Positions 3,997 to 64,000 are shown, counted from the stretch's first letter. The stretch: DNA of 64,000 nt from Scenedesmus sp. PABB004 (GCA_014905635.1 CM026547.1:2108001-2172000), one strand, 5' to 3'. The notes: generated by a model from the letters alone, not told the origin. Made by a program: numbers and translations.

Positions 3997-4029
<33 letters not shown>

Positions 4030-4448: not shown

Positions 4449-4535
<87 letters not shown>

Positions 4536-42113: not shown

Positions 42114-42333
42114 GCCCACGCACGCGCTAGCGCAACACCCGTGCAAGTCAGCCCGCTCCCCAGACAAGCCCCCCTCCCTGCAACCTCCGCTCGCCTAAAA
42201 GCGCAGAGCGGTCAGTGCTCACACCTCCGCTTTGGACGCGAGAGAAGAGCATGCTTCAAGGCGCCGACCAAGGCCCCGGCCGCCCGCCGCGGTCAAGGCG
42301 AGCGCGCGCAAAGCTGTGTGCATCTGTTTGTGA

Positions 42334-42456
42334 CCGGCAACCGACGCGTTCTCCAGCAACCGCCGTTTCTCCAGCAACCGCCAGTCTTTTTCCAGCAACG
42401 GTCGGGGACCGGCGGTTCTCCGGCAAGCGGCGGTTCTCTAGCAACAGCCGGTTCTC
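42334..42456. repeat. Degenerate ~18-bp minisatellite (about 6 copies, consensus TTCTCCAGCAACCGCCGG) in a lower-GC convergent spacer
   Basis: CCGGCAACCGAC, GTTCTCCAGCAACCGCC, TTTCTCCAGCAACCGCC, TTTTCCAGCAACGG, GTTCTCCGGCAAGCGGC, GTTCTCTAGCAACAGCC, GGTTCTC. Confidence 0.85.
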
Positions 42457-42588: not shown

Positions 42589-45500
42589 TCACGCGGCGGA
42601 CGCAAACGCCGCGGCGGCGGCGCTGCAGTTCTTCTCCTCCTCCTTGGAGCACTTGTGCTTGCTGTAGTAGGTGCAGTCCGACCTGCACACCGCGAGCTTG
42701 CACTTGCCGCTGCTGCAGCGGCAGCCGGGGCAGCAGTCGGCGTCAGCGCGGCACTGGGCGTCGGCCTTGGCGCAGGGCCAGGCCTCCGGCGCGCGGCAGT
42801 AGCCGACGCGGCTGGCGTGGTCCCACTTGCAGATGAGGCCGTCGCAGCACGTGGCGCCGCCATAGCTGCGCGCGGGCGGCGCGGGCGGGGCGGGGCGGGG
42901 TGGCGCAGGCGGCGGATTCGCCGCCAGCCACGGCAATGGGCGGGCAGGGCGGGCACGCGGCCGCCGCGCCGCCGTCGCGCGGCGCGTCCGCACCAGTTGC
43001 CGCAGACCTCGCCCTCCTTGCCGCACTGGCGCGTGGGCAGGCAGCGGAAGCTGGGGCTGTAGTACGTGTGCGGCCGGGCCTTGGCCAGCGCCTGGCAGGA
43101 GGAGCCCGCGCAGCAGGGGTCCTTGCAGCCCGCGCCGGTGCAGGGCGTGCACTCGAGCCACGCGCCCGTGCATGTCGCGCAGGTGTCGGGCGCGCAGGCC
43201 GCGCCAAACTGCCAGCGCGTGGCGCCGGAGCAGCCCGAGGCGAGGGTCTGCACGCACGTGCCGCTCTGCGTGCAGCACGCGCCGACGCTGTGGCGGCAGG
43301 AGGGCACGCGGGCGGGCGCGCGAGCTCAGCAGCGGCCCGGCGCAACAACCGCTGCCCGGCGAGCTGCACCGCGGCAGGCGAGCAGCGCGGCTGCTCACCA
43401 GACGCCCTTCTGCCCGCAGGTGCCTCCCGCGCTCCACGTGCTCGGCGCCGGGCACTGGGCGAGGCTGTGTCTGTTGGTGCACGCGCCGGTCGTGGGGTTG
43501 CAGCACGCGCCGGTGGCCTGCGGGCGGCGGGCGCGGGGTGAGGCAGGTGCGCGCCGCGCGCCGCGTGCCGGCGGCGGCGGCGGTGGGCTGCGCACCAGGG
43601 CTTTGACGGTGGCGCTGGCGCTGCTGGTTGACACGATGCTGCCGGGCGCGAGCACGGAGGCCACGTTGATGATCTCGCCCTCCTGCGTGACCCGTGCGGC
43701 GATCACCACGCGCCGGCTCTGGCCCGCGGGGATGCTGGCAAAAAGGCAGCTCACGACCGACCCGCCGCCCTCGAGCGCGCACTCCTTGGCCGGCAAGACC
43801 GACACAAAGTCGAGGCCGGCCGGCAGCGGGTCCCGGACAACGACGCCCGTCGCCACGCCGTTGCTCGACGCGGCGATGATGGTGTAGCGCACGACGCCGC
43901 CCACGGTGGGCCGCGTGGGCGCGCCGGCCTTGCTGAGCGTCACCGTGGGGGCCGCGGCCACGCGCACGCAGCAGTCGGCCGCGGTCAGACTGTTGCTGGG
44001 GGAGGTGACCTTGACCGCGCTCGCATTGAAGTAGCTCCCCGCGGGGCAGCTGAACCGGCTGTTGTCCCAGTTGAACGCGCCGCAGCTCGGGACAAACTGG
44101 CGGGCGCGCCGCGCGCGGGCAGGCGGGCGGCGTCAGGCGGGGCGTGGCAGGGCGCGGCACGCGCGAGCCCCGCGCCGCCCGCAGTGGGCGCGCGCCGCCG
44201 GCCGGGCGCGCACCGCGAGCGACATGGTGGCGTCGCCGCCGGCGGCCCGCACGAGGGTGCCGGCGGCCAGCACGCCGTTGCCGGCGGCGGTGGCAAAGTT
44301 ATTGAGCGCGCCGGGGCCGGTCGCGACGGCGGTGAGCGTGGCGGTGCGCGTCTCGCCCTCCTTCAGCGTGCCCCAGTCGCACGTCATCGTCTGACCGGAC
44401 AGGGAGCACTCTGCGCGCGCCGCGCAGTGGGCGACGGGCGCGCACGGGGGTGGGCTCGTGCGCGCGCGCCTGCGCGGCGCCGCGCGCCGTGGCGGCCCCG
44501 CGGCAGGGCGCGGCGCGCACCCTTGGGGCTGACGGCCGTGGGCTTGAGCGGCGCGATGAGGGCGTCGACGAGCTTCACGCTGCGCACCTCACCAAGGCCC
44601 GCGTTGCGCACCTGCGCGCAGCGGGCGGCGGGCGGGCGCGCCCTCGGCCCGCGCGCCCCGCGCCCGCGGCGCCGGCCGCCGCGGCGCGCGGCAGCAGGTT
44701 GGCTGCGCCGCGCCGTGTGGGCCGGGCGGGGCGCGCCCGCACCGTCATGGTGAAGTTGCACGGCTCGTTGATGCGGATGGCTGCCCCGGGGCCGACCTTG
44801 GTGACCGTGATGTCGGGCGCGCCGGCGGGCGTGAGGTCGATGGTGCAGCACTTGGCAACCGACGCCTCGGTGCTCGCGATGTTGGCGGTGTCGAGCACCA
44901 GGCCCAGCGGGCAGGGGAAGCGCCCGCCCGTCGGCGTGAACGCGCCGCACGTGGGCGTGTACTGCGGGCGGGCGGGCGCGGCGCGGGGTCTGCGGCGCCG
45001 GCCGGCGGCGGGGGGGGCTGCGCTGGGCCGGCGCGCGCGCGTGCGCGCACCACAAAGGTGTTGATCGCGTCGCTGTTGTCGCCCTCAAAAACGTCATCGT
45101 CGGCGGTCACAAACACCGCGTTGCCGACCACGCCCGACGACAGCGCCTTGACCCGGATCGTGCCCTCAACCGCGGCGCCGGCGGGGACGGTGCCGACGGT
45201 GCACGTCACGACCTGCCTGCCCGCGGACGGCGTCATCACGCAGTCTGCAGGGCGAGTGCGGGGCCGGGCGGCAGGGCAGGGCGGCGGGGTTGGGCGGCGC
45301 CGGCGCGGGCGGGCGCGGCGCGGCCTGGCGGCCGGCCCAGCTGGCGGAGCTCGCGCGCGGCCGGCGCTCACTCAGGGAGGCGGGCGACACGGCCACAAAC
45401 TGCACGCTGGCGGGGAGGGCGTCGGTGGCGACCACGTTGCGCGCCTCGCCCGTCCCACGGTTGGTCAGGGTGATGGTGTAGTCAAACTCAGACCCCGCGG

Positions 45501-48500
45501 CGACGGGCAGGGTCGGGCCTGTGCGGCGCGGCGCGGCGCGGCGCGGCGCGCGGGCAGGCGGGGGTGGGCGCGGGCAGGCGGCGGCGCGTCCCGCGCGGCC
45601 GCGCGCCGAGCCTGCGGCGCGTGTCACGGCGGGCCGGTAGCTCTCACCCGACTTGACCACCTCCATGTCAGGGCGGGGGCGGTCGAGCTTGATGCAGCAG
45701 GCGACGTCCGAGGGCGACGAGACGTCCCGCGTCGCGGCGTTGGACACGGCGTCCGCGGGGCAGGGCCACTTGGCGCCGTCGGGCGAGAACCGGCCGCACG
45801 TCGGCGTGTACTGCGCGGGGCGGCGGGGCGGCGGGGCGGGCGGTCGGCACCCGCGCGGTGCGGCACGGCGCGGCGCTGGGCGGGGGTCTGGCCACAGCGG
45901 CTGGTGCGGCCCCGGCGGCTCACCACGTTGGTCCAGACGTAGTCGTTGTTGTTGCTCAGGTCAGCGTCGGCGTCGGCGGTCGCGCGGACGGCGTTGGACC
46001 ACGACCCCGCCTCGCTCGCGGCGGCGGCGATGGTGATGTTGAGCGCGGCGCCCCCGGCGAGGGTGCCGAGGTTGCAGGTGACCGTGCGGCCGGCGATGCT
46101 GCACTTGGGGTGGTCCACGCTCAGCGGGCGGAGCGGCGGCGTCATCGCGTCCACGACGACCACGTTGGCCGCGGCGAGCTGCCCCCGCGACGCGAGCGCT
46201 ATGGTGTAGGCAAAGGGCTCGCCCACCGGCACCAGCGCGCTGGGGCCGTACTTGGCAACCTCCAGGTCCACCACGCCCGCGGGCCCGCAGCACGCCGCGT
46301 CGCTGGGCGAGGTGCTCGCGGCCGCGCTGGCGTTGAAGACCGAGCCTGCGGCGCAGGGCCACTTGGCGCCGTCGGGGGAGTACGAGCCGCACGTCGGCGT
46401 GTACTGCGCGGCGCGGCGGGGCGGGGCGGGTGAGCGCGGGGTGACTGGGGGCGGCCGGCGCGCCGGGCCGGTTCGGGGCGGGGCGGGGCGCTGGGCCCCG
46501 GGCCGGCGCCTGCCGGCTCACCGTGGTGACGGTGGCGGTGGCCCTGTTGTTGGCCTTCTTGTCGGCGGGCTCGTTGTCGGCGTCGGCAGACGCGGTGTTG
46601 CCGAGGCTGCCCGCCGCGAGCACGGTGACGGTGATCTTGACCACCGCGCTGCTGCCTGCCGCCAGGCTCGCCCAGCCGCACGAGACGCGCTGCCCGGCGA
46701 TGGCGCACGCGCCTGCGTGGCCGCGGCGCAGGCGGGCCCGCGGGCGTAAGGCGGGCAGCACAGGCGGCGCGCGCGCTCGCTGCGCGCCCCGCTGGAGCTC
46801 GGCCCGCACGGCCGCCCGCGCGCGGCGGCGGCGCACCCGCGGGGCTGACGGCCACGGGCCTGAGCGCCGCGATGATGTCGTCAGTCAGACTGACGCCCGT
46901 GGCGGCGCCGTCGCCAATGGACGTCACGCGCAGGGAGTAATCAAAGCGGCTGCCCACGGGCTGGCGGTCGGTGGGGCCGACCTTGACCAGGGCCATGTCC
47001 GCGCCGGGCGCGGCAGGCAGGCGATACTGCACGAGCGGACGGGGCGGCGGGCTAGGCGTGGAGCGGCAGGTGCAGGGGGGGGGGTGCCCTGCCCCGGGGC
47101 GGCCCGCTGCGCGGGCGTGCGCCGCGCCGACTCACGCAGCACGTCTCTTGGCTGGGCGAGTCGGCCTGGGTTGCGCTGGCATTGAACAGGGACCCTGCGG
47201 CGCAGGGGAAGGGCTTGCCCAGCTGGAACAGGCCGCACGTGGGGTCCAGCTGCGCGCACACAGGCGGGAGGCAGGCACGCGTCAGCGGCGGCGTCCGCCG
47301 CCGCGCCCCGGGCGAGGCAGGGGCCGCCCGGCCGGCGCGTGCCCGCCGCCGGCTGGCTCACCACGCGCACGATCGCGCTGTCGGCGTGGGTGTAGAGCTG
47401 GTCGCCGCTGGTGACACTCGCATAGTTGAAGAACGTGCCGGCCGCGCTCGCCGTGCAGCGCAGCAGCACGGTCCTGCTCGCGCCGACGGCCAGGTCGCCG
47501 AGGGCGCACTTGAGCGTGTTGCCCGACACGGAGCAGCCCGCGGTGGGGGTCGACACGACGACAAACGGCGCGGTCAGCGTGTCGATGAGCTGCGCCGCGG
47601 CGGCGGTCTTGTTGCCCACGTTGCTGATGAGGAACCTGCGCGTGGCATCGGCGGCGTGAGCGGCCGGCGACCATGGCGGCGGCGGCGCCCTTGCCCCATC
47701 CCACGCGCAGCGCGCGGCGCACCTGAAGTCAAACTCCTGGCCCACCTCGACGGCCGCGTCGGGCCCGATCTTGGCGACGTCCAGCTCCGGCGGCGGCGCG
47801 CGGCGGCAGCACTCCTTGGCGCTCGGCGGCGGGCTGCTCTGGTCGAGCTTGGCGGGGTCGATCTCGAGGCCGTCCCCGCAGTCGATGGGCTTGGCGGCTG
47901 GCGTGAATGCGCCGCACGTGGAGCGGTACATGTAGGTGTTGGCGCCGGCCGTGTTGTCCGACAGCAGCGTCTCGCCCACCGCGCTGACGCTCGCATAGTT
48001 GGCAACCGCCCCCGGCGCGTCGGAGCGCAGCGTGAGCGTGTACGTGCGGCTGCTGCCCGCGGGCATGGCGCCGATGGCGCACGTCACGACGCTGCCCGCT
48101 GCGGGGCGCGCGCGCCGGCGGCGCGCGCAGGCTGCGGGGCGGCGGCGGCGGCGGCAGCGTGGGCTCTCGCACGGCGCGCGCGGGTCCGCGCCGGCCCTGC
48201 CGGGCCGCCTGGGCAGCTCGTCTCACCCGGGGAGATCACGACGAAGCTCATCCCATTGGGCAGCACGTCGGTCAGCACCACGCCCGCGGCGTCCGCGGGG
48301 CCCAGGCTCCTGACCGTGAGTGTGTAGTTGAACGTGTCACCCACGCGCACCGCGTCAGACGGGCCTGCGGCGACGAGCGACAGCGCGGGGTCGAGCGCCT
48401 GTCGGCCGCGGCGGCGCGTGCGCGCGCCAGCCAGCCTTCCCGGGGGCCCCACCGCGCGGCGCGCGCGCGCCGGCCCCTCGGGCACCGGGCGCCGGGCGCA

Positions 48501-51500
48501 CCCGTCTTTGTGAGCGCGACGTCGGGCTGCGGCACGGGCACGAGGACGCAGCACACGGCCTGCGTGGGCGGCGTGGCCTGCAGCGCGCCGCCGTCAAAGC
48601 TGTAGCCCGTGGGGCAGGCAAACTTGTCGCCCGCGGCGTTGATGAAGCCGCAGCGGGGCAGGAAGACCGAGGCCGAGGCGCTGTCGGCGTTGTTTGAGAG
48701 GTCGATGTCCTGCGCCGAGCTCACGGTCGCGACGTTGTTGAATGTGCCCTGCGCGCCACCGGCAAAAGGGGTGTGGGTGCGTGTGTGTGTTTGTGGTTTT
48801 GGGGGGGGGGGAGACAAGTCACGCGGCCTGACCGCGGGCCGGCGCGCGCGCACCTGCGTGCTCGAGCGGGTGGTGACCCGGACCGTCACCGAGCTGCCCG
48901 CGCTCATGTTGCCCAGGTTGCACGTCACGGTCTGGCCGGCGATGCCGCACGCCGGCGACGGCGTGACCGACACCGGCACGAGCGGCGCCTGCAGCGTGTC
49001 GACGAGCTGCACGGCGGTGGAGGGGTCGGCGCCGCGCGCGTCTACGCGCAGCACGAAGTCAAAGTTGGTGTCTACCGCCACCGCGGTCGCGGGCGCGGTC
49101 TTGGTGAGCGCCAGGTCTGGGAAGAGCACGCGGTTGCAGCAGGTCGCGAGGCCCGGCGAGGTGCTGCTCGCGGCGCCGGCGTTCACGGTGTAGTTGGCCG
49201 GGCAGGTAAACGCGGCGCCGGCGGTCGTAAAGACGGCGCAGGTGGGCACGTACTGCGTGGCGCGGCGGCGGCGGGGCCGGCGGGGACGTCGGCGGCTCGG
49301 TGCCGCCCGCGCATCACAACGCCGCACGCCGGCCGCTCGCGCTGCTGCCGCCCCAGCTCCGGCCCTGCCAGGCAGTGCGCTGCCTGGCGGGCTCACCAAG
49401 GTGACGCTGACCTGCGGGCGGCAGCGGCGGGCGGGCGCTCAGCGATGCGCCTGCCGCGCCTCAGCCCGGCCGCGGCGGCGGCCGCCGCGCCCCGCACCGT
49501 GTCGGTGTTGTCGGCCAGGTTTGCGTCGAGCAGGGCGGCCGCGTCCACGCGGTTGGCGACCGCGCCGAGGGTCGGGCCGACCGCCTGGGTCGTGACGGTG
49601 ATGTTGTAGGTGGTGCCGACCGGCACCGTGCCAAAGTCACACGACAGGACCTGGGCGCTGATCGTGCACACTGCGCGCATGCGACGGCGGCGGTGGCGGC
49701 GGCGTTGGCGCGCCGGCGGGCGCGCGCGCGCGCGCTTGCATGGGCGCGCGCGCACCAGTGGCGCCGGGGCTGGGCGTGACGGCGACGCTGAGGGGGGTGA
49801 GCCCCGCGGGAAAGGTGTCTGCCAGTGTGACGTTCTTGGCCTTGAATGTCCCGCGCGAGCTGAGCTGGATGCGAAAGTCAAACGTCGAGGTGAGCGGGAT
49901 CAGCGTGGCGGGGCCGTACTTGCGGACCTGCGCGCCGCGTGTGGGGGCGAGGGCAGGCCGCGCGGCGGGCCCTCGGCGCGTGCGGGGCCGGGGCTGCGGC
50001 GGGCTCTCCGCGCGCGGCGCGGGCCGCGGCGGCGGCGTGCGGGCTGGGCGGGCCACGCGCGGCGCGCGCCTCCAGGTCTGCCCCCGGGGTCTCCTTGCAG
50101 CAGGTGGCGGCGCTGGGCGGTGCGAGCAGGGCGGAGGTGGCGTTGTAGACGAGGTCGCCGGTGCAGACGTACGTCGCGCCGTTGCCGTCGGTGGAGCCGC
50201 ACGCGGGGACATACTGCGCGCGCGCCGCGGCCGCGGGGCGCGGCTGAGGCGCAGCGCGCGCGCGGCCTGGTCGCTCGCCGGCAGCGCGCGGAGCGTGGGC
50301 AGCGCGCTGCGCGTGCCGCGCGCGCACCGTGGTCACGGAGACGGTGTTGGAGGGCACCGCTGCGCCGGCGCCGATGTAGGCGTTGGCCGTGTTGGCAAAC
50401 GTGTTGGCGGTGCTGGCCTGGGCCGTGATGGTGATGGTCACGGCCGTGTCCTCGGGCACGTCGCCCAGGCTGCACCTCACGCGCTGGCCAGTGACGGTGC
50501 AGGCGCCGCCTGGCGGCGGGGGGCGCGGCGGCGCAGCGGCAGGCGCGTCGGGCGCGCTGTGGCACGACTGCTGCCGTGCGGGGCGCACGCGCGGCGGGTG
50601 CCGGGAGGCAGCGGGCGGGCGCCAGGAGGCACGCGCTGCGGCGCTCACTGCTGGCCGACGCGGACTGCGGCACGACGTTGGTTGGCAGGTCGTCGATCAC
50701 TGTCACGTTCACGGCCGCGATGGTGCCCGTGGAGTTGAGGATGAGGCTGAAGTTAAACGGAGCGCCAACCTGGATCAGGGACGCGGGCCCCGCCTTGGCG
50801 ATGGCGACCGAGGCCGTGCCCAGCACCACGATCTGCGGCGCGCGAGCGCGACGGGGGCGGCACAGAGACGGAGGCGCGTGGCGGGCGCGCGCGGCGGGGA
50901 CCGGCCGGCGGGAGCGCGGCGGCAGCGCCGGCCGGCCGCGGTGGCCCCGCGCGCTGCGCGCGCGCCGCGCGCGCCGCACCCTGCAGCAGGTCGCGGCGTC
51001 GGTGGTGGTGGAGTTGACGTTTGCGGCATCGAGCACGCTCGACCCGGTGCAGGGGTACTCCTGGGCCCCCGCGGGCGCGGTCGGGTCGTAGAGGCCGCAT
51101 GTGGGAGTGAAGACGATGACGCTCGCGCTGTCCGTGTTGTCGCCTAAGATGAGATCGTTTGTGGCCGTGGACGTGCCGCTGATGGGGTACGACCCGCCCG
51201 CGCTCGCCTGGCAGGTCAGCGTCACTGCGGCGCGGCCGGGCGGCGGTGCGGGGGCGCGTGGCGCGGGCGTGCGAGGGGCGGGCGAGCTGGGCCGCGCTGC
51301 TGCGGAGTGGCGGTGGCGGTGCGCAGCCGCCGCTGGCCCCGCCCGCGCGCGCACACCCGTGATGCTGCTGCCCGCCGTCATGTTGCCAAAGTTGCAGGAG
51401 AGCGCCGTGCTGCTCGTCAAGGAGCACGCGGGAGTGGGCGTCACCGCCGAGCAGGTCACGCCGGCGGGCAGCGTGCTGGTCAGCGCCGCGCTCTCCGCGG

Positions 51501-52930
51501 TGGAGTCTCCGACCGACTCTACCAGCAGCGCGACGTTAAAGTTGGTGCTCGGCAGCACCGAGCCAGCGGGACCTGATGCCGTCGTCCTGAGGTTTGCCGT
51601 GTTAGCCGGGGTGTAGCAGCACGTGGCCTGGGCCTTCGTGGCGGTCTCAATGTTCTGGTAAGTTCCGTTGCGGGAGGTGTTGAAAAACGTGCCCGTGGCG
51701 CAGGCGAACGACGCGTTGTACTGCGCGGCGGGCGGCGCAGCGGTGGCGACGGCTGCGGCGCGGGCGGGGGCCGCCAGGGCGTGGCGGTGGGCTGCTAGGA
51801 GGCGCGCGCACCATGTAGAGGCCGCACGTGGGCACAAAGGTCTGCACGTTGATTGGCAGCACGCCGCTGCTGCATTTGCTCGACGTCGCGGGGCCGCTGA
51901 CCATCCAGTGGCTTGGCGTGCTGTTCGTCGCGGCGCACGCTGAGCCCGTAAGGCTCTGGCTCCTGCGGGTGAGGCGGCGGCGTCGTCGGCGCCTGCCGGC
52001 GCTGCGCCGCCCGCGCGCAGCGCCCCAGCGCAGTGCGCGCGCCGGCAGCCCGGCCGTCGCCGGCCCCGGCGGCTGCGGCGAGCGCGCACCACCCGATCGC
52101 CCAGTCCAGGGGCTGGCCGCCGCAGGGCCGGGTCGACACGTTCAGGGCGGGCATGACGCAGTCCACCACAAAGCCGGGCACGCTCACGTTCACGTTCCCG
52201 GAAGCCACGTCCCCTGCACCGCGGCGGCGCGCCGCGCTGGCGCAGCGCGCGGGGCGCGCCGCCGCCGCGCCGGGCCTCCCGGGTGCCGCCGCGCGCGCTG
52301 CGCCAGCGCCCGCCTCGCCCGCACCGCAGCAGTCGTTGTCGCTCTGTGCGGTGACGGTCGGGTCCAGCGCAATCTTGGTGCACTTGCCGTTGGCCTGCCT
52401 CGCATAGATGCCGATGTCGTACCGGTTCGTGCTGGCCGACAAGGTGACGACGAGCGTGCCCGCCATGCGCTGGCCGCTGTAGCACACCGCGCACGTCTTG
52501 CCCGCGAGCGCGGGGTCACAGCACGGGGCGCCCGGCAGCGACGCGCCGGCGGTGACAGCCGGGGCGAGGATGCTGGCGCCGATGATCCTGAGGTCGTTCG
52601 CGGTGCAGCCGGTGCCGCCGTCGGCGGCGATGCAGTTGGAGTCAAACGCGGGGCCGTAGTCCGCGGCGCTGCAGTTGGTCTGCGGCGGCCGGCGGCGGCG
52701 GCGTCGGCCGGAGCGCGCCGCGCGCTCTCCGCGCCCAGCCCGCGCCGCGCCGCGCGCACCTGCAGGAGCCGGCGCCGCAGCGCGCCCAGCGTCGTGCCGT
52801 AGCTCCCCCGTGTGCTGCTGACGGTGGCCGGCGCGTCGTCGCGCATGAGGGGGGTGAAGAGGTCGACGTCCAGCGCCACCGCGCGCGCCAGGCCCGCCAC
52901 CACCAGCAGGAGCGCGTACGCGCGCCTCAT
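42589..52930 (-). CDS. Giant secreted Cys-rich protein: signal peptide, RRLL propeptide, N-terminal Cys domain, 11 x [4-Cys module + DUF11/TIGR01451-like Ig domain], C-terminal Cys-rich repeats; ~30 introns
   Basis: MRRAYALLLVVAGLARAVA...RRRLLQ. Repeated DLxVxK.GP...VG..F.YT..V.N.G...A..V..TD.LP.G...VS...C......V.C.LG.L.AG......N.A.......N signature, each preceded by xPTCG...C...CC. Stop at 42589. Confidence 0.9.
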
Positions 52931-53810
52931 GCCTGCTCGTTGACCAGCCGCGCAACGGGTCTGCGGGCGGAGCGGGCGCGCAGCGTCACCGCGGCGTCGC
53001 TGCCCGCCGGTGAGGGCCGCCGCCGACGCCACCGCCGCCGCCTCCGCCGCGCCGTGCGGGGGCTGCGCCTGGTGTTGGGGGCCACGCAGGAGCTGGTAAG
53101 CCGCGCGCGCGATCCAGGGGCGCTGAACGGCCCGCGGCAGTCGCGCCCGCCAGCCCAGGCCCCGGGCCCGCCCGCCCGCCGGCCGCCAAGCCGCACGCCG
53201 CCCGCGAAAATGCATGGCACCGATCAGCCAGTCACAGCGCTCACCTTGCTGCGGAGGCCGCCGGCGGGTGCCGCAGGCGCACCGCGGTCTCCTCGAGCTT
53301 CGCGGAGAAGCGCAGCTTCGATTGCCGGCCTTGCCACGCGTCTGTGGCTCTGTATGCGCGCGTGGCGTACGGCTCAGCGGCACAGGAGCACGTCCAGCCC
53401 GGGAGAAGCCGGCCGGCAAACAGCTGGCCGGAGAGGTCAACAGCAGCTTGTCCACCGGGGACGGGACTCGCGTGTGCTGAAAAATCGCGGCTGCTTCGCA
53501 AGCCAATACAATGAACGTCGCACCCTGAACATTCTCAGGCGTCTTTGAGCCGCGCGGGTTGCAGATCGGCGCCGGCCGCAGGGGCAGTGCGCAGGGATGC
53601 GAGGGCCGCTCGCGCACGGCGACCCGCACGGCCGCGCGTGCACCGCCCAGCGTCTAGGGATCGCGCATCGAGCTCGATGCCACGTCGCGCGCGCCCCTCG
53701 GGGCGGGCGGCGGCGGCCGGTTACCTTGCGGCACCCGGCACTGCGCGGCGCGCGAGCCGCAAGCGGCCGCGGCGGCGCTCGGGCCCGGCGGCGCCAGCTG
53801 CCGCCCCAGC

Positions 53811-56088
53811 TCAGAAGGGCGCGAATGCCTTGTCTCGTATGACCATGAACTTGAGCCGCCCGTCGCCCGTGTTCCAAATGCGGCGCTTGCTCCGTGGGCC
53901 GAGGCCCTGCGGGTTGATGGTGCTCTCGATTGGCTGGTCCAGATGCGCTGGCAGTACGTAGTAGCCCAAGAGAACGTCGCCCGCGGCCTGCGCCCGGCTG
54001 AGCACGCGCCACAGGCTGATCGCCTCGCCGCGGGCGCAGTACTCGGAGGCGTCGACGATGCTCCAGTCCGAGCGCTGGCCGACGCCGGTGATGACCAGCA
54101 TGGCGAGCGGGTTGACCGCCACCTGGGCCAGCAGCTTGGCGGACATGGAGTTGATCTGCCGCGGCGGCGGCGGCGGCGGCGGCGCCCGGCGTCAGGGCGC
54201 GCGCGCCTCGCCGCGCCGCAGCGTGGCGTGCCCCGACCGCCCGGCCGGCTCACGTTGACGCTGATGCCGAGCGGCAGCCGCCGGCGGTCCTCGAAGCGGG
54301 TCAGGCCCTGCGTGGCGACCTTCTGGCAGATGATGTTGATCGGCGGCAGCCGCAGCTCCTCCAGCAGCTTGCGAATGTTGAGCTGCGCGGCCGCGGCGGC
54401 GGTCGCGGCGGTGGGGGTGCGGCGGTGGGCGCGCCGGCACGGCCCGCCCGCCCGCCCGCCCGCCCGCGGCGCACACCAGCAGCCGCGCGCCGCGGCCCCC
54501 GCGCCCCGTGCGCCGCGCACCTGGACCGTGACCATGAGCGCGTCCTGGCGCAGCACGCTGGGCTGGTCGATCGCATCAATGCCGTTGGTGTCATCGCCGT
54601 CGGGGTCGGACCAGCGCGAGTCGGCCAGCACCAGCGCCGCGCGGAAGCGGGCGAGCGGCAGCGCCGCGAGCTGCGAGCGCTGCAGCGGGTCCGCGAGCAC
54701 GTGCGACACCTGGGCGCGGGGGGCGGGCGCCGCCGCGGCGGCGGCGGCGCGAGTTCAGCACGCGCCGCGCGGCCGGGCCAGCAGCCGCCCTGGCGCCAGG
54801 CCGGGCCCTGCCTGCGCCGCGCCTTGATGTTGCTGTCCTGCCCGACGCGGCGCAGCGCGCGCATGAGGTCGTCGGCCGGGTGTGTGTTGACGCACACCAC
54901 CTCGCTGCCCGGCGGGAGGAAGCCACCCTCCAGCGCCGACATAAGCTCACGCATCAGCCCCGGCTCCGCCATGCCGCACACCAGCACGGCCTGCGGCGAG
55001 CTGCGGCGCGGCACGCGGCGGCAGGCCAGAGGGCAGGCCGCGCGGCGTCGGGCATCTCAGCCGGCATCCCTGTCTCGGGTTTTGGGGGACCCACCCGCTG
55101 GCCCCCGGAGCCCGCGCGGCCCTGCCGCAGCGCGGCGCAGTGTCACCTGTCCACCGCCAGGTACTCCCGCGGCACGTAGCTCCAGCTCGACTGATCGTCG
55201 CTGCCGACCCAGGCGTGGCGGCTCAGGTCGGGCGCGCCCGTCGGTGGGGCGCCGCCGGCCGCGAGCCGCCCCGCGCGCGGCGCCGGCTGGCCCGCCCCGC
55301 CCCCGGCGCCCGGCGGCACCGTCGGCAGGCCGTCCATGCTGCTCGCGCTGTCGCGCCCGACGGTGGGCACGGCGTCCCGGGGCAGGGCGTCCATGCTGTC
55401 CAGCGTGCTCTCCAGCACCGACCCGCTGCTCCACCCCGACGCGCCGCTGTAGCGCGCGCTCGCCAGGTCGTCAGCGCTGCCCGCTGCCGAGCCCGGCGCG
55501 TCCAGAGCGTCCAGAGCGTCGTCGCCCTCATAGTCGATGCCGCCGTAGCCGGCGCCGTAGTCGGCGTCCAGCGACGAGCCCGTCGCCATGGCCAGCCCTG
55601 CGCGCGCCTGCAGCCCCGGCTGGTCCCAGTCGCCGGGGTCGGGCGACGGCGCGTCGTCGTCGCCCCCGGGCATCAGGTCCTCGTCAGACTCCAGCGCCGT
55701 GCGCATCGTCGCGCCGCGCCGGCTTCCGGCGGCGGCGGCGGCGCCCAGGCCGCCCGCCAGCTCCTCCTCGCAGCTGCTCAGCACGGCAGACGCAAACGTT
55801 GCCGCGGGAGCGCGAGCGCGGCGGCCGTTGCTGGCAGCGATGCTGGCGCTGGCCAGCGGCCCTGCAGCTGCAGGGCCTGCCATCCCAGGCTGCACGCCGC
55901 CGCTGCCACCTCCGCCAGCGGCGCGCGGCAGCTGCGTCTGCTCCTGGTCGATGGAAGACTGCGCCAGGGAGCTGCCCGGGCTCCTGTCGTCCACCATCGC
56001 CGCCGAGAAGGGCACGCCCAGGCTGTCCCCCGAGCTGTCGCTGCTGCTGCCGGTCCTGCTGGTCGCCGCTGGCCGCGCCACCACCTGT

Positions 56089-56139
<51 letters not shown>

Positions 56140-58895
56140 GCCGCCGGCGCCGGCGCCGGCGGCGGCAGGTCCAGCTGCTGCGTCTGCCGCTGCGCCTGGC
56201 GGCTGGCTGCTGCTGCGCTGCGCGCCGGCGGTGGCTCCTCGCCCAGCTCTGTCTCTGCGCCGACGTACGACGGGCGCTGCTGGGCCATGACGCCGGCAGG
56301 CTCCGCCGTCGCCGCTGCCTGGCCGCCCGGCGCGGCCGCTGCCGAGCCCTGCTGCTCCTGCCAGGCGCTGCCGGCCAGGAGGTCCACCAGCTTCCCCTGC
56401 CAGCCCCGCGCCTGCGCCGCCGCCTCGCGCTGCTGCTGCTGCAGCAGTGCCTGCCCCTGCTGCTCGAGCTCGCCGATGCTGAGCAGCCGCGGCAGCGGCC
56501 GGAAGTCGGCCGCCGCGATCGACGTGGGGCGGCAGAAGACCAGCTCGTCGTCGGGGCGCACGCAGTAGTCGGCGGGCAGGCTCAGGCTCACGCGCCCGCT
56601 GCCCAGGTGCGCCACGCCGAGCACGATGGCGTCGGGGAAGAGGCGCGCGAGGCTGCGGAACGGCGTGCCCGTGAGCTCGGGCATCGCCTGGATGTGGAGC
56701 CCACTGCGAGAGTCGAACGCAAACAGGCGCTGGCTGATCCAGGAGACAAAGGGGCGCTTGATCATGCGCGCGAGCCTGGAGGGCGGGGAGCAGGGAAGAG
56801 GGGGGACGGCACGCGCGGCGTGGGGTCGCCGCCGGCTGGCCGCGCGCGGCGGAGGGCCGGCTGGCCCCGTCGCCTCCGCCGCCGGCGGCCGCGCGCACGC
56901 ACCGGTGCGCGTTGAGCGCGCCCGTCGGCAGCGGTATCACGCGGCGGCTGCAGCTGAAGCGCAGGAGCGGCACCGCGTTGGCGGTGCGCGTCTCGACCAC
57001 GATGTGCCCGAGCTGCCGCCCCCGGCGCAGGCCGCGGTAGTCGTCCAGCTCGTCCAGCAGGATGGCGCACCTGCGCGCGGGCGAGAGCGTGTGCGCGCGT
57101 GTTTGTGTGGGGCTTGGCGTGTGTGGTGTGTTGTGTGTGTGTGTGTGTGCGCCTGAGGGTGCGGCACCGGCGGCGCGCGCGCCGCCGCCCGCCCGCCCGC
57201 CCGGGGGGTCCAGGCAGCGCGGCGCGGCCGCACCGGAGGCTCTGCGCGTCCGCCTCGTCGCGGCCGCGGCTCTGGTCGCTGAGGATGATGACGCTGCGCG
57301 CGCGGCTGGCCGCCACGTTGCTCAGGTCGCTGGGCAGCAGCGGGCTGCCCTGCCGGAACACCAGCCGGCAGCCCGCACGCGTCGCGGGGGGCAGCGCGTT
57401 CCTGCGGGCGCGCGCGCGGGCCGGCGGCGCGCTCGGCGGCGGGCGGCCGCCGCCGCGGCGCCGCGCCTGCCTGGCTGGCGCGCCCGCTGGCCTGGCCGCC
57501 GCCGTGGCGCAGGGCCGCCGGGGGCGAGGCGCCCCACTGCATTCCTCTCCCATCTCTCACCTCCTCCCTCCTCGCCCTCAACCCTAAACCCTCTCCGCCC
57601 ACCTGAAGATCTCCTCCATCTCCAGCTTTTCCCGCTGACTCAGCACCACGATCGTCGCGCCGCCCTCCGCCGCGGCGGCGGCGCAGAGCTGGCCCACGAG
57701 CTTGATCAGCACCTCCAGGTCGCGCTGGCTCACCGCCCAGGACAGCACCAGGAACTGCGGCGGCGGAGAGCGGCGCGCGGGCGCGTCAGCTGCGCGCGCG
57801 CGCACGCGCGGCCGGCGGCGGCGCGGTGGCGCGGCCGGGGCGGGCTCACGTGGCCGGACTCGAAGACCTGGCTGCCCTTCTTGACGTTTGCCAGGTTGGC
57901 CTCCAGCACCAGCTGCTCCACAATGGCCAGCGCGAGCGCAAAGCCCGCGAGGCCCACGAGCGCGACGAGCACGCTGAACACCTGCCGGCGCGGCGAGGAG
58001 CGGCGCGGCGCAGACCCTCGGCGGCCGCCGGCGGGGGCGCCGCGCCGCGCCGCGCCGCGCCGCGCCGCGCCTGCTCCACGGGCGTCGCGGGGCCGTCTGT
58101 GCCTGGGAAGCTCTCGCCGAAGCTGAGGACCATGACCTGGTACACGTCACCCCACAGCGCGGCCAGCCAGCTGCCAGCGCCACCCGACGCCGCGGCGGGG
58201 GCGCCAGCCGCCGCCGCGCCGGGCGCGCCCGCCGCCGATGCCGCCGCGGCCGCCGACGCGGCCGCGGCGGCGGCCGCCGCGTCGGCGGCGGGGTCGATTG
58301 CGATCCGTTTGAGCAGCGCCGCGGCGAGCAGGAGGAGGGAGGAGGCGCCGGAGATGAGCAGGAGGTCTGACACGCCGTCGGTGCGCCAGTTGTAGTACTC
58401 GTACAGTGCGCGCTTGGGCAGCTCGCGCAGCGCGCGCAGCCAGCGCCGCCGGCTGCGCGGGCGCGGCCGCGCCGGCGGCGCGGGCGCGCCGGCGGCGGCG
58501 CGCGCCGCCTGGCCCCGGAAGCGCGCGACGTCCGCGGCCGCCCCGTTCACCAGGTCCCAGTCCGGCCCGCCCCCGACGTGCGGCCTGGCCGTGGAGGCGC
58601 TCCAGCTGCTGTCCGGCAGGGGCCCGGTGAAGCTGTAGGGCTGGTCGAGCGTGCGCCTGGAGGGTTGGTCGGCCGCGCGGTCGGCCGTGCGGTCGGCCGA
58701 CGGCGCGCTGGGCGGCTCGCCGCCGCCGCCCGAGGCGCCGCCGCCCGAGGCGCCGCTGGCGCAGCGCACGCGCCGGCAGGCTGGCCGGGCCGGCGGGGAC
58801 CTGGAGGGCACCTGGCAGGCGCCCCGCCGACGCGCCGGCGCCGGCGCCGGCAGCGGCGCCGGCGCTGCCGGCGCATGGTGCAGCGCGGAGCTCAT
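53811..58895 (-). CDS. CASTOR/POLLUX/DMI1-family cation channel-like protein with a plastid transit peptide and two RCK-like domains
   Basis: Transit-like ...RRVRCA. TM segments, then VKKGSQVFESGH|FLVLSW, VVLSQREKLEME, FRQGSPLLPSDLSNVAASRARSVIILSDQSRGRDEADAQSLR, GHIVVE, PELTGTPF...FPDAIVLG, VLVCG, RRIWN.GD...KFMVI. Confidence 0.88.
56091..56139 (-). repeat. Coding (CAG)16 polyglutamine tract within the channel gene
   Basis: (CTG)n on the + strand; Q16 in ORF 55143..56765. Confidence 0.9.
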
Positions 58896-59936
58896 GATCG
58901 CGGCCCCATGCGACCGACGGTCACGCGGGAGCTGGGCGCGGGGGCTGGGCGTCGTCGGCGGCTCGGGATGCTGCGCGAGCAGGCGCGATACTGAGCCGAA
59001 CCGAAAGCCCTAGCCGGCGTTTCCAGGGTGAGCAAAGCGCAGTTCTGGGGCCCTCGTGGGCGAGGACGAATCATGGCGGGAAAAGCAACAGGGCGCGCCG
59101 ACCTACGGAAGGAGTGCAGGTGGAGCCGACCCGCACGGGCGGCCGGCGGGCAGCAAACGGCCCGTGTTGCACAGGGTGGCGATGGGAGGAGGGGGGCGAC
59201 GGTGTGCCCAATCTTTCGGCTGCGCAGCCGTGCACAGCAGAGCAACGCGCGCGCGCGCGTAAACTCCCGCCAGCGCCGCAGCCAGCAAGGACGCCGCCTT
59301 GCGTTTGGCGGTTATCGACAAATGTTCAGTGTCAGGCGACGCGCCCGGTGGCGGCAGCCGGGCCGCGCGGCGCAGGCTGCGCACACGCGCACCATGGCTG
59401 CGGTGCAGGCTCCTGCGCCACAGCGGCGCCGCCGCACGCCGGTGCGCGCGCGGCACGTGCAGCAGCGCTCTGGCAACCGCCACACACACACACCAAGCCC
59501 TGCCGCTGCCAGCTTGTTTAAAGCTGGCGCGCATTAGGCAGCAGACAAATGCGCCTGGCACGACGACGACGGTCGCGTGTAACGGCACGCAAGAGGAACC
59601 AGAGGACAAGGCGCGGGCCGTGGCGCGGGACACCACGCGGCCCCCAAGCCAGCGACGCCGTCGAGCCCGTTCAATCCCTGGCGCCGCCATCGAGCGGCCA
59701 AAACCAAAGCGGCCGCGTTGAGGTCAAGCAAGTCAGATGTGCGCGCTGACGCGCAGGGCACACCTCGGCGCGGCGCGCGCGCCGAGGCCCCCGGGTTCGC
59801 GCGGCAGGCGCCGCCGCGCGGGCGCCCCCTCCGTGAGGGCGACGCGAGGGCGACGCGAGCCCCCAATCCCGCCCCCCGCCCCCCAGTCGAGTCGGGGCCC
59901 CCCTCCGCCGCGACGGCCCTCGTTTGCCCGCCGCGG

Positions 59937-60691
59937 TCACCGGCGCGCGCAGAGGGCGCGGAGCAGGCGCGCCAGCCAGCCGGGGCGGGCGGCGGCCTCC
60001 CCCTCCCCGGCGGCGCCCGAGCCGCCGCCCTTGCGGCCGGGCCCCCGCGCCGCGCCGCCGCCCCGCTCGAGCAGCACTGCGCCGTCGAAGCTGCCGCCGG
60101 GCGGCGGGAACATCTGGCGCAGCGGCTGCAGGCGCGCCTGCACCAGCGTCAGGTTGGCCTCCTCCGCGCCGTTGGTGCGCATCGCGCTGAGCAGGTAGCC
60201 CATCTGGCACGCGCGCGGCGCGGTGGGGCGGCGGGGCGGGGCGCGGCACGGCGGAGGTGGGCGCGCGCGCGGCGCGGCTGCGCAACCGCCCTCGCGGCGC
60301 GGCCACCGCCGCCGACCGGCCCCCGTGCCCCCCCGCCCCCGGGCGCACCATGATGTCGTAGTGGCGCTGCGTGACGGCGTGGGCCTTGATGACGGGCACG
60401 TGCACGCGGCGCAGGTACTCGATCTGGCGCTCCGTCATCGCGGCGTCAAAGAGCGTGAGCTGGTGCAGGAAGTAGCTCACGTGCGTGCGCAGCACCACCA
60501 TGTTGACGCCCCGGAACAGCGGGCCCAGGTCCGGGTCGGCGTAGATGTCCCTGCGGGCGCAGGGGCGCGCTCGCGCGGCGGCGGGCGAGGCGGGCGCGGC
60601 GGGCGCGCGCCGCGTGACGCAGCAGCCGCGCGCACCGGTAGTAGTCGTTGGTCGCCTCCTGGATCAGCGGCATGTCCAGGGCCGCGGCCAT
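59937..60691 (-). CDS. Divergent group I truncated (2/2) haemoglobin-like protein, 3 exons
   Basis: MAAALDMPLIQEATNDYY|RDIYADPDLGPLFRGVNMVVLRTHVSYFL...YLRRVHVPVIKAHAVTQRHYDIM|MGYLLSAM...LQPLRQMF. B10 Tyr, DPxL, CD1 Phe, proximal F8 His and HYD are recognisable. Confidence 0.8.
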
Positions 60692-61393
60692 GGCTGCGCG
60701 CGGCGGCCCGCGCGGCGGCGCGGCGCGGGCGACTCGCGCTGCTGCTCGCTGCGCCGGCGGCGCCGGCCGGCGGGCCCGCAACCCGCGCCTCCACAGAGCA
60801 GCCCCGGAGCGCGCCTCCCTCCCGGAACCCCGCGCCGCAGCGCGGACCCGCCCCAGGCACCGCGGCGGGCGCTGGCCCCCGCCTCTCCCGCGAGCCGCCC
60901 CCGCGTCGCGCCCACCTGCCGGCATGGTGCCCGCAATCACCGGAGAGGTCACAGACGCTCTAGGCAGGCGGGGGCACCATCGAGCGGGCGCCGCGCGCGC
61001 GTGAGCGCGCCGGGAGCGGCTCTTGCCGGGCGTGAGCTGGCGCGGAGGGGCGGGTCGGCGATCGATCGCGCTGCAGCCCGGGGATGTGTGAGCGGGCGGC
61101 AAGCGGCGCGCCCAGGAGCTCACACCGCCGCACGACGCCGGGGCGGCCGTCGTTTCGCCGTTCTGTGCGGCTCAGCGGCTCAGCGGCGGCCCGACCGCCG
61201 CGGGTGCGTCTGCGCACCGCGCAGGGCCGCATGCGCCTGCACTGCCGCCAAAAGCGCCCGCTCAACGCGCCCGCCGCCGCCGGACGCCGCCGCTCGCGCG
61301 GCGCGTGGCAGCAGCGCGCGCGCACACCCCCGCGCGCCGGGGCTTTTTTGGCCCTGCTGCGCTGCGCTGCGGCGCCCCGGAGCTGCGGGCGTG

Positions 61394-64000
61394 ATGGCGT
61401 GCCGGCGGGCGCTCGCCGCGGCGGCAGCGCTCGGGCAGCAGCAGGCGGCGGCGACCGCCGCGCTGCCCGCCGCTGCGGCGCCGGAGGCGGCGGCGCTGCT
61501 GGGCCGGCTGGTGGCGCACGAAGCGGAGCAGGGCGCCGCGCTGGGTGCCGCGACGACGCGGCGGCGCCCTCCATCGCTGCTGTGCTCGCCGCCGCCGCTC
61601 GCGCAGGCGGCGGCGCGGCCGTGGGCGCAGGAGAGCGGCGAGAGTGGAAGCAGCGGCAGCGGCAGCGGCAGCAGCGGCAGCGGCAGCGGCAGCGGCAGCG
61701 CGGCGCACGCGAGCCGGGCCGACGACGATCCTGGGGACGCGCCGCCCCCGGGCGACTCGCTCACGGCGGCGCTGGCGGCGCTTCGCAGCAGCTCGCGCGC
61801 CGGCAAGCTCACGCCGGCGGCCATCACGCAGCAGCTGGACAGGCACATCGTCGGCCAGGCGGTGCGCGGCGCGGCGCGGCGCGGCGCCTCTCCCTGCCCG
61901 CGCGGCGCACGGCGCGCGGCGCGCCAACACCGCCGCGGCCCCGCCCGCCCGCCAGGCCGCCAAGCGCGCCGTGGCGGTGGCGCTGCGCAACCGCTGGCGC
62001 CGGCACCGGCTGCCGCAGCACATCGCCGAGGAGGTGCGGCGCGGCGCGCGCTCCGCCGCCGCCGCCCGCGCCTGCCGCCGGGCGGGCGGCCCACCCCGCC
62101 CCGCCGCCCCCGCTCTCGACTCCCCGCCCCGGCCCGCCAGATCACGCCCAAAAACATCCTCATGGTGGGCGGCCCGCGCCGTCACCCGGGCTGGGGGGGG
62201 GGGGCGCGCCGCGCGCGCGCACGCCGCGCGCCCGCACCCGCGCTGCGCCCAGCTGCCCCCCCCCCCCCTGCCGCAGGTTGGGCCGACCGGGTGCGGCAAG
62301 ACCGAGATCGCGCGCCGCCTGGCCAAGCTCGTGGACGCGCCGTTCGTCAAGGTGCGCCGGCGCTGGTTGTGGCTGGCACGGCTGGCGCGCTGCGCGCCGC
62401 GGCCGAGGCCGGCCGCTGCTGGTCTCGGGGGCGCGCAGGTTGAGGCCACCAAGTTCACGGAGCTGGGCTTTGTGGGGCGCGACGTCGACGAGGTGGGGGA
62501 CGGGCGGCGTGCGGCCGCGGGAGGGGGCGCGCGCGGCGCGGCAGCTGTTGCCGGCGCGGCGCCGGGCGACGCGCGCCCCGCCCCTACACCCCGCACCGCG
62601 CTCCCCTTGCCGTCTCGCCCCGCTCAGATCGTGAAGGACTTGGCCGACGCGGCGCTCGCGCTCACGCGCGCGCGCCTGGCCGAGGGCCTGCGCGCCGCGG
62701 CGGGCGGCGTCGTGGAGGCGCTGCTGCTGCGCGAGCTCTGCGGCGACAGCCCGGGCATGGTCGAGGCGTTCACGCCCCTCTACCGTGCGGGCGAGCTCGA
62801 CGACCGCCTCGTGACGGTGGACCTGGACGCCCTCGGCGACGCGACGGCCGCGGGCCCGGGTGGCCTCGCGAGCCTGGGCGGCCCGGGCGGCCCGCTCGGC
62901 GGCGGCGGCGCGCCGCCCGGGGGCGCGCCGGGCGAGGGGCCCGGCGGCGCCGGCGCCGGCGGCGCGGGCGCGGCGGGGCACCCGCTGGGCGCGCTCGCGA
63001 GCGTGATGGAGGCGATGGCGCGCCGTGGCGGCGGCGACGGCGGGCACCGCGGCGGCGGGCACCGCGGCGCGCGGCGGCAGCGCATGCCCATCGCCGAGGC
63101 GCGGCGGCTGCTGCTCGACGCCGAGGTGGAGCGCTGCCTCGCGAGCGACCGCGTGGTGCGCGGCGCGGCGCGGCGCCGCGCGGGCAGCCCGCCAGCCAGC
63201 CGCCGCGGCACGGCGCGGCGCGCGAGCCCTGCCCTGTCCCACGCCGCGCCTGCCGTGCAGGTGCGCGAGGCGCTGCGGTGCGCGGGCGAGGACGGCATCG
63301 TGTTCATTGACGAGATTGTGAGCGGCACCGAGGGGCGCGAGCGGGGGCCGAGGGGCGGGCACGGCCAGGGAGGAGGGGGGCCCTGGCGAACGAGGGGACG
63401 CGGGCAGCCCGGCGCGGCGATGACGCCCCGCGGGGCGTGACCGCGCGCCCCGCCCGCGCCGCGCGCAGGACAAGATCGTCGACGCGAGCCGCGGCGCGGC
63501 GGGCGCGACGAGTGAGGCGGCGCGCGCCGGGCGACGCGCGTGCGCCCCGCGCGCGCCCTCGCCGACGCGCCTCGCCCTCCCCCGCGCGCGCGCGCGCGCG
63601 CAGGCAGCAACGTGAGCAGCGAGGGCGTGCAGCGCGACCTGCTGCCCATCCTGGAGGGCAGCGTCGTGACGACCAAGCACGGCCCCGTGTCGACCGACCA
63701 CGTGCTCTTCATCTGCAGCGGCGCCTTCCACTCGACCAAGCCAGGCGACATGCTCGCCGAGCTGCAGGCGCGCGCGCCAGGCGCCGCGCCGCGCCGCGCA
63801 GCGCGCCGGCCGCGCGCGCGGCGCCGGCGAGACGCGCGGCCGCCGCGCGGCTCACCCGCTGCCGTCGCATGCAGGGGCGGCTGCCGGTGCGCGTCGAGCT
63901 GGCGGGCCTGACGGCGGACGACTTTTTCCGCATCCTCACCGAGCCGGCGCACAACATGCTGCGCCAGGCGGCGGCGCTGCTCGACACGGAGGGCGTCGCG
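61394..64000 (+). CDS. hslU: HslU/ClpY ATPase subunit of the HslUV protease, mitochondrial-type presequence; runs off the window end
   Basis: [125 protein letters not shown]. Confidence 0.96.

Follow-up and report, generated by a model that had tools for sequence, protein, structure and literature searches.

Long proteins carrying tandem DUF11 domains are best described in prokaryotes. According to the available sections of a 2025 survey (PMC12617251), DUF11, now renamed CLIPPER, builds the stalks of adhesins and carries an intramolecular Lys-Asn isopeptide bond that confers thermal and protease stability; the structure 9IFR is a CLIPPER domain. The same sections deem eukaryotic DUF11 matches likely false positives or contamination.

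Here we analyse a DUF11-type gene in a 64-kb stretch of DNA from Scenedesmus sp. PABB004 (GCA_014905635.1 CM026547.1:2108001-2172000; hereafter the window). The original prediction, made from sequence alone, had placed at 42589-52930 a giant surface protein in which DUF11 domains alternate with an unrecognised 4-Cys module. We consider that this locus is probably one intron-rich nuclear gene of a very GC-rich, Scenedesmaceae-related green alga, encoding a secreted wall or matrix fibre that works like the stalk of a fibrillar adhesin. By this analogy, we expect a modular protein of ~2,300 aa that is secreted and N-glycosylated and does not reside in a membrane. It would have an N-terminal Cys-rich head, a rod of 11 Ig-like DUF11/CLIPPER β-sandwiches, and a C-terminal cysteine knot serving to fasten the rod to the wall or to partner proteins. 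Three locks may stabilise each unit of the stalk: an autocatalytic Lys-Asn isopeptide bond, an intradomain disulfide, and the preceding 4-Cys mini-domain acting as a rigid linker. Being distantly similar to the C-terminal half of CBM14, this mini-domain could also bind glycans weakly. The fibre may serve as wall, matrix or ornament material or in cell-cell adhesion.

A single gene model with 31 exons

The GC content of the window is 73-82% throughout, which leaves open frames on all six frames; that of the gene (0.73-0.78) is similar. On the minus strand from 52930 to 42589, each segment has one frame in which T, S, N, V, I, F and Y abound, as is typical of coding sequence, and this frame shifts every 100-500 nt. 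A splice model was built by training codon log-odds on seven coordinate-defined blocks and running a dynamic programme between the start codon (ATG, 52930) and the stop codon (TGA, last base 42589), with GT-AG and later also GC-AG introns of 45-900 nt permitted. The model is as follows (all minus strand).

42589-52930: whole gene, in-silico model of 31 exons and 30 introns, 2,293 codons plus stop
Exons 1-8: 52930-52760, 52679-52325, 52213-52090, 51962-51812, 51720-51357, 51224-50980, 50832-50649, 50509-50328
Exons 9-16: 50213-50070, 49927-49756, 49670-49498, 49411-49397, 49252-48854, 48748-48502, 48364-48227, 48098-47723
Exons 17-24: 47635-47371 (alternative donor 47362), 47249-47136, 47026-46837, 46712-46522, 46403-45924, 45810-45648, 45518-45372, 45244-45051
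Exons 25-31: 44961-44743, 44611-44521, 44410-44214, 44096-43596, 43517-43399, 43287-42994, 42865-42589

The predicted coordinates and strand were therefore right, the 2,293-aa model falls within the predicted 2,200-2,400 aa, and one frame-restoring model spans the locus, as expected in silico for one giant gene rather than several separate genes. Splice signals are uniform: 29 of 30 donors read GTG[C/A/T]G, and acceptors read (G)CAG. The single GC-AG intron, in unit 3, has the donor GCGCGC at 50069 where others read GTGCGC; it is needed because it keeps module 3 and joins '...GADLE' to 'VRKYGP...', as in unit 8. A micro-exon of 15 nt (49411-49397) encodes VSVTL and supplies the final β-strand motif ahead of module 4, as in other units. 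Intron positions recur between units: 7/11 have a phase-0 intron directly ahead of the module, and 6/11 have a phase-1 intron following the DUF11 'SP'.

Independent support for the splice model comes from P0032, an uninterrupted, intron-less metagenomic open reading frame (ORF) of 460 aa that is collinear with model residues 1609-2048 (37% identity; 14 of the 444 aligned columns are gaps). This alignment crosses six predicted junctions, and a gap coincides with a junction only at D9, the DUF11 domain of unit 9, where the model has a 5-residue insertion relative to the homologue. The weak points of the model are this D9 junction, the D5 junction (48227/48098) and the alternative donor at 47362. 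No TGTAA poly(A) signal was found in the 690 nt downstream of the stop. Among the sequencing runs listed for the sequence there was no RNA run, and one DNA run of a freshwater metagenome shared 7% of its words. In the presumed 3' untranslated region (about 42333-42453, minus strand), about five copies of an imperfect tandem motif of 18-20 nt (CGG-TTGCTGGAGAAC-like) were seen by eye.

Eleven alternating units of Cys module and DUF11/CLIPPER domain

The model protein contains exactly 11 units, each starting with a Cys module and running straight into a DUF11 domain (D1 to D11), at a spacing of 157-169 aa; the strict alternation thus stood as predicted, and the rod-like, heavily cross-linked arrangement was supported as a design. 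The units are listed below (all minus strand) with their PF01345 scores, which were obtained per exon piece (gathering score 24.6 bits).

51112-51838: unit 1, module (intron-split) and D1; 18.8 bits, below gathering; the sole domain without the catalytic triad (A/S/I)
50214-51111: unit 2, module and D2; 22.3 and 20.4 bits in two exon halves
49253-50213: unit 3, module and D3; 23.2 bits; holds the GC-AG intron and the micro-exon
48665-49252: unit 4, module and D4; 44.5 bits
47929-48664: unit 5, module and D5; 42.5 bits; first intradomain Cys missing in the model
47250-47928: unit 6, module and D6; 41.0 bits
46404-47249: unit 7, module and D7; 22.1 and 32.5 bits
45811-46403: unit 8, module and D8, complete in exon 45924-46403; 55.2 bits; modelled with AlphaFold2 (AF2)
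44962-45810: unit 9, module and D9; 38.5 bits
44097-44961: unit 10, module and D10; 18.3 bits only; pairs with P0032 domain 2 in the tree
43596-44096: unit 11, module and D11 in a single exon; PF01345 50.9 bits, TIGR01451 33.7 bits; pairs with P0032 domain 3

The Cys module is ~42 aa long. Ten window copies were alignable as single-exon references and yielded the module profile; all of them carry C5, C17, C38 and C39, while P3 and G6 reach at least 90% conservation. The Ig domain's own Cys pair, also predicted, is present in 10/11 domains; D5 lacks the first Cys in the model, at an uncertain splice junction.

At least one exon piece exceeds the PF01345 gathering score in 7/11 units (D4-D9 and D11, 32.5-55.2 bits). 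D1, D2, D3 and D10 give only partial pieces below threshold (18.3-23.2 bits, E 9e-5 to 3e-3), at the correct profile positions. With TIGR01451 (cut-off 24 bits), D11 reached 33.7 bits and the other two units scored remained below the cut-off (17.6 and 18.8 bits), so that this model upholds the assignment in one of three cases. The sole PDB sequence match of a profile made from the window DUF11 pieces was 9ifr_A (E 8.9e-7); unit 8 alone gave only chance pectate-lyase matches (E 0.29).

AF2 modelling of unit 8 with a 49-row alignment gave a predicted local distance difference test score (pLDDT) of 95.5 and a predicted template modelling score of 0.78; the single-sequence run reached a pLDDT of 45.8. 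The fold evidence comes from unit 8 only, and all structural matches fall in its residues 42-160. The best VIA match to this model was 9IFR (Z 14.4, root-mean-square deviation 2.0, 115 aligned residues), and Foldseek aligned the two with E 6.8e-6 and a template modelling score of 0.75 on the target. Ranked below 9IFR were CARDB (Z 13.2), integrin calf/thigh, alpha-2-macroglobulin/C3 and Gram-positive pilin domains. The DUF11 part of unit 8 is thus modelled as a CnaA-like Ig β-sandwich as in 9IFR and, together with the profile matches, bears out the predicted DUF11 identity. Chlamydial OmcB (Chlam_OMP6, PF03504; gathering 34.1 bits) scored at best 18.5 bits, in one exon of unit 9. Searched against longer proteins, unit 8 matched 14 DUF11 repeat proteins with 29-38% identity and a query coverage of 53-74%. 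Four of these carry names, two of which denote bacterial metagenome-assembled genomes (MAGs), and the three inspected look bacterial and have no Cys module. A metagenome scan with unit 8 found one distant locus (L003; 35% identity, DUF11 part only).

A conserved K-D-N triad

The conserved K, D and N columns of the window DUF11 profile align in HMMER to K10, D44 and N101 of 9ifr_A. This conserved CLIPPER triad is a feature that was absent from the original prediction. Scored at those columns in 92 domain rows, the K-D-N triad is present in 10/11 window domains, in 8/9 domains of the relative P0023 and in 44/52 bacterial rows. D1 has A-S-I instead, all three residues having gone together. That 10 of 11 window domains keep the triad despite their divergence is to be expected if it is functional, and on these residues an autocatalytic Lys-Asn isopeptide bond is probable in 10 of the 11 domains. 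In another relative, P0021, none of 11 domains has the full triad (K and D are left in two, D alone in two), and the Cys pair is present in all. P0021, without any full triad, and its sister P0023 offer a natural contrast for what the isopeptide bond contributes.

N- and C-terminal regions

The rod is flanked by the following regions (all minus strand).

52760-52930: exon 1, signal-peptide-like MRR and hydrophobic core, residues 1-57, ending in RRRLLQ
51839-52679: Cys-rich N-terminal region of about 200 aa (exons 2-4), without known family
42589-43517: Cys-rich C-terminal region of about 230 residues (exons 29-31), with GACC-type repeats, a terminal knot (CCDGLxCKWDH...) and a short Ala-rich tail

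Exon 1 holds the most hydrophobic 19-residue segment of the protein (Kyte-Doolittle hydropathy, KD, 1.98), and no second segment above KD 1.75 was found across the 2,293-aa model. The C-terminal tail consists of only 11 small or hydrophobic residues. With a single hydrophobic segment and such a tail, there is no convincing transmembrane or glycosylphosphatidylinositol (GPI) signal. The model contains 121 Cys, 25 NxS/T sequons and two short Pro runs. The predicted signal peptide with RRRLLQ, the many sequons and the lack of a membrane or obvious GPI anchor all agree with the model.

The N-terminal Cys-rich region has no Pfam, NCBIfam, PDB sequence or Atlas match and is absent from the 107 proteins that match the module profile (see below). 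No Pfam family exceeded its threshold in the C-terminal region (Dickkopf_N was best, 16.5 bits against 25), and a homologue search with the C-terminal exon among proteins gave no match. Re-scanning the 107 proteins showed the C-terminal knot to be common to P0021, P0023 and P0036, with 56% identity over 55 aa in P0036 (Hariotina) and 47% over 78 aa in P0021 (Scenedesmus PABB004); by eye it is recognisable in P0023 and also in P0017. In P0017, P0021, P0023 and P0036, too, the knot is followed by a few terminal residues rich in Ala, Val and Ser. They are not enough for a classical GPI signal but may represent a conserved tail for sorting or processing.

The Cys module defines a protein family

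The Cys module has no Pfam match (window exons) and, as a profile, no PDB sequence match. When the 10-copy profile was searched against 1.84 billion representative proteins, 107 matched at E ≤1e-3, 30 at ≤1e-10 and three at ≤1e-30. The module is therefore unrecognised in that it has neither a Pfam model nor a PDB match, and not in the sense of being confined to this locus. A local re-scan recovered the module in 101 of the 107 and none in the other six. Module and window-type DUF11 occur together in 18/107 proteins, with the alternating order in P0021, P0023, P0032, P0038, P0057 and P0068; 83/101 are pure module arrays without DUF11. Sources were looked up for 29 distinct proteins and included the following.

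Scenedesmus sp. PABB004: 3/29 proteins
Scenedesmus sp. NREL 46B-D3: 1/29
Tetradesmus obliquus: 1/29
Hariotina reticulata: 1/29
Insects: 2/29 (P0044, Anabrus simplex; P0054, Periplaneta americana)
Caldisericia MAG: 1/29
Eukaryote transcriptome sets: 2/29

The profile matches are mainly Scenedesmaceae proteins of the extracellular-matrix type, and homologues were seen in four or more assemblies or transcriptomes of Scenedesmaceae. Among ten of the 107 that were scanned, false members were found: five are arthropod-type CBM_14 arrays, including P0044 and P0054, and two are BNR_4 proteins, one of them from the Caldisericia MAG. Relatives also carry signal peptides, and in two of them, P0018 and P0028, the module is found alongside hydroxyproline (Hyp)-type (SP)n stretches. 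The Protein Atlas gave no usable match for P0019 (best 0.77).

The top match of the module profile, P0015, lies on OZ220494.1, a 1,824,586-bp chromosome of a Bdellovibrionales MAG. An uninterrupted ORF (L001:3001-6669) encodes its 1,223 aa, in which EGF-like spacers accompany 13 modules. The gene has 47% GC, against 33-39% in the flanks, an AbiEi antitoxin gene adjoins it upstream, and a 77%-identical paralogue (L002) lies ~10 kb away. Four further module proteins are tentatively assigned to the same MAG. From these sequence features the P0015 locus looks like a foreign island, and either direction of transfer between alga and bacterium is possible.

KAF8055670.1 (P0023) and KAF8058311.1 (P0021) share both the architecture and the knot, and we therefore place the locus in a family, so far without a name, instead of regarding it as one of a kind. 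The original prediction of an undescribed system therefore holds in part: no description was found, but the alternating architecture with the same knot is already in GenBank. There the relatives are hypothetical proteins only. Judged by sequence, the locus is a member of an undescribed Scenedesmaceae family with the 'PTCG...CC' module.

No published description of this family was found in searches for DUF11/TIGR01451 with green algae and for the Scenedesmus wall, with subscription journals outside their coverage. In the literature listed, the whole word DUF11 occurs together with an alga only in a Phaeodactylum promoter table, and a review of the green-algal extracellular matrix (ECM) does not contain the word 'cysteine' and has Scenedesmus in genome lists only.

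Genomic context, age and origin

Outside the gene (1-42000 and 53800-64000), the window contains split eukaryotic genes with partial-domain Pfam matches only, as expected for such genes. The intron-split gene thus lies in the eukaryotic, alga-type context that had been predicted. Its neighbours are as follows.

About 3990-5052, plus: NTP_transferase, consistent with GDP-mannose pyrophosphorylase, partial Pfam match
About 18.7-27 kb, plus: ABCA-like transporter gene, including the ABC-type exon, by eye only
22417-22734, plus: ABC-type ATPase exon, matched as AAA_21
31091-31549, minus: zf-met/U1-type zinc finger, partial Pfam match
About 34.6-37 kb, minus: P450, partial Pfam match
About 38-42 kb, plus: RecD-like helicase, by eye only
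About 54-58.5 kb, minus: Castor_Poll_mid channel, partial Pfam match
63576-63794, plus: AAA_2, partial Pfam match

Neither module nor DUF11 was found elsewhere in the window. The window DUF11 domains are 35-38% identical to their nearest paralogues, and identity to the window protein stays at or below 57% in all fetched proteins. In a DUF11 tree of 92 rows (bacterial proteins capped at four domains each, arbitrary root), D10 pairs with P0032 domain 2 (Shimodaira-Hasegawa-like approximate likelihood ratio test, SH-aLRT, 92) and D11 with P0032 domain 3 (SH-aLRT 96). This pairing and the low paralogue identity suggest that the array is old and positionally conserved. The 40 algal, metagenomic and window rows all group on the same side, and four bacterial rows are placed with them (branch 0.025, SH-aLRT 88); with a branch so short and weakly supported and an arbitrary root, the tree is compatible with a single transfer but does not demonstrate one. 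Horizontal acquisition of DUF11 is plausible from the distribution of the domain. In the available part of PMC12113381, a 'DUF11 domain-containing' gene of Phaeodactylum, Phatr3_J48356, is among the low-salinity-induced genes. DUF11 may thus be genuine in diatoms too.

Alternative explanations

Several points weigh against a stalk-like wall or matrix fibre. The N-terminal head is without detectable relatives even in the family, which makes an adhesive tip a matter of pure analogy. The gene structure is a computational model whose D5 and D9 junctions look imperfect. An offset of 705 converts the triad positions of 9ifr_A to 715, 749 and 806, and the table in the available part of PMC12617251 has Lys715, Asp748 and Asn806, so that the Asp is off by one. 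The lack of any intact triad in P0021 indicates that the isopeptide bond is dispensable in this family. No experiment or paper supporting function or localisation was found.

The main functional rival is a lectin-like cross-linker, in which the 4-Cys modules would be the working parts, as multivalent CBM14-like glycan binders, and the Ig domains inert spacers. Linking chains of a wall polysaccharide (chitin-like or other), the protein would act as a lectin or cross-linker within the wall and not as an adhesin projecting from it. We regard this as rather unlikely. It would fit the prevalence of pure module arrays in the family, and also the five arthropod CBM_14 arrays drawn in by the module profile, which led to a profile-profile test of the module against CBM14. 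In hhalign, 286 module copies aligned to 58 CBM14 copies with a probability of 91.7% over 27 columns (module 12-38 to CBM14 26-52), compared with 0.5% for the reversed alignment and at most 3.6% for 20 column shuffles, although the score is inflated because the CBM14 copies had been pre-selected by similarity to the module profile. Pfam CBM_14 (PF01607), on the other hand, matched neither the module at E up to 10 nor the module arrays at E up to 1. Module and CBM14/peritrophin-A have in common an 'F-x-C-P-x-G-x-x-F-N ... P ... C' core and their occurrence in long extracellular arrays, but the module corresponds only to the C-terminal half, has 4 Cys rather than 6 and ends in an invariant CC. 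By sequence, the two may be weakly related, and we take the kinship as a lead.

The other rivals concern the gene itself. The locus might comprise more than one gene, or be a decaying repeat array that is not expressed and whose open frame the high GC content (about 78%) favours. This would be in keeping with the long open frames in all six frames and with a model that requires one non-canonical GC donor and one 15-nt micro-exon. This is unlikely, and quite clearly so: 30/30 introns restore the frame with one splice consensus, the micro-exon restores the final β-strand motif of other units, and annotated homologues of 1,777 and 2,344 aa share the N-to-C layout. Moreover, repeats that are only 35-38% identical keep their 4 + 2 Cys and, in 10/11, the triad, suggesting long purifying selection. 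That a bacterial contaminant or recent bacterial insertion was taken for an algal gene is very unlikely indeed. DUF11 is overwhelmingly prokaryotic, the best full-unit database matches are bacterial (29-38% identity), and the eukaryotic matches were judged likely contaminants in the sections of PMC12617251 cited above; yet this gene has 30 spliceosomal-type introns within domains, the composition of its flanks, split eukaryotic genes on either side and homologues in several Scenedesmaceae, and none of the fetched proteins exceeds 57% identity.

The secreted wall or matrix fibre thus remains our preferred reading. Tentatively, it can be extended: the family could be the first credible eukaryotic one with intramolecular-isopeptide (CLIPPER) stalks. 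A domain taken over from bacteria long ago would have been invaded by introns and, in Scenedesmaceae-like algae, joined to a CBM14-derived 4-Cys module and a cysteine-knot anchor. The resulting extracellular fibre, triply locked by isopeptide, disulfide and knotted linker, might for instance be the protein core of bristles or wall ornaments or serve in coenobial adhesion. The module would since have moved between algae and algae-associated Bdellovibrionales. We consider this extended history possible but doubtful.

Comparison with known systems

Isopeptide domains are regarded as prokaryotic, and here an intron-rich algal family in several genera keeps the catalytic triad; eukaryotic use of spontaneous isopeptide bonds in a matrix thereby becomes directly testable. 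The analysis also delineates a Cys module that is widespread among the matrix proteins of Scenedesmaceae. To our knowledge, the wall proteins of Scenedesmaceae are essentially uncharacterised, although these algae are in industrial use. The occurrence of the module in a Bdellovibrionales MAG points to a possible cross-kingdom domain transfer, in either direction.

The true family relatives are KAF8055670.1 (P0023), KAF8058311.1 (P0021) and KAF8061406.1 (P0017) of Scenedesmus sp. PABB004 (S. glucoliberatum) and Hariotina reticulata EP00775_P012044 (P0036), which have the same module, DUF11 and knot. At most 57% locally identical to the window protein, all four are hypothetical or uncharacterised. 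P0021 and P0023 alternate DUF11 and module units as the window protein does. They differ from it in their start, which is VWA-like by eye, and in having a second Cys-linker type and near-identical, recently duplicated repeats, whereas the 11 window units are old and diverged.

The volvocine hydroxyproline-rich glycoprotein (HRGP) wall proteins and pherophorins are likewise secreted building blocks of the green-algal ECM. They are linked to the family through P0018 and P0028, which combine the module with (SP)n; the UniRef name of P0028 is 'Pherophorin domain-containing'. No window ORF or exon scanned matches Pherophorin (PF12499). In contrast to HRGPs and pherophorins, the window protein has no Hyp-type rod, with only its two short Pro runs, and its rod consists of folded Ig domains.

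The CLIPPER fibrillar adhesins found in bacteria and in archaea, such as Acinetobacter silvestris B9T28_05395 (9IFR), resemble the window protein, as far as the available sections of PMC12617251 describe them, in PF01345, the CnaA-type Ig fold and the K/D/N triad, and both are long proteins, secreted or predicted to be so, with a tandem stalk and frequent extra disulfides. The window protein differs in its eukaryotic intron-split gene, in the 4-Cys module that separates the domains where adhesins have direct tandems, and in a Cys-knot C-terminus in place of an OmpA, LPXTG or sortase-type anchor. Of the features that define fibrillar adhesins, it has a hydrophobic, signal-peptide-like N-terminus and repeated stalk-type domains, 11 in number. 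No Pfam or NCBIfam family representing an adhesive domain or an envelope anchor (LPXTG, OmpA-like, PEP-CTERM) was found in its N- and C-terminal exons. By analogy, the protein may work in an adhesin-like manner, and we do not count it as a fibrillar adhesin. CLIPPER stalks themselves are already known; what is new here is a CLIPPER-stalk surface protein in an unexpected kingdom.

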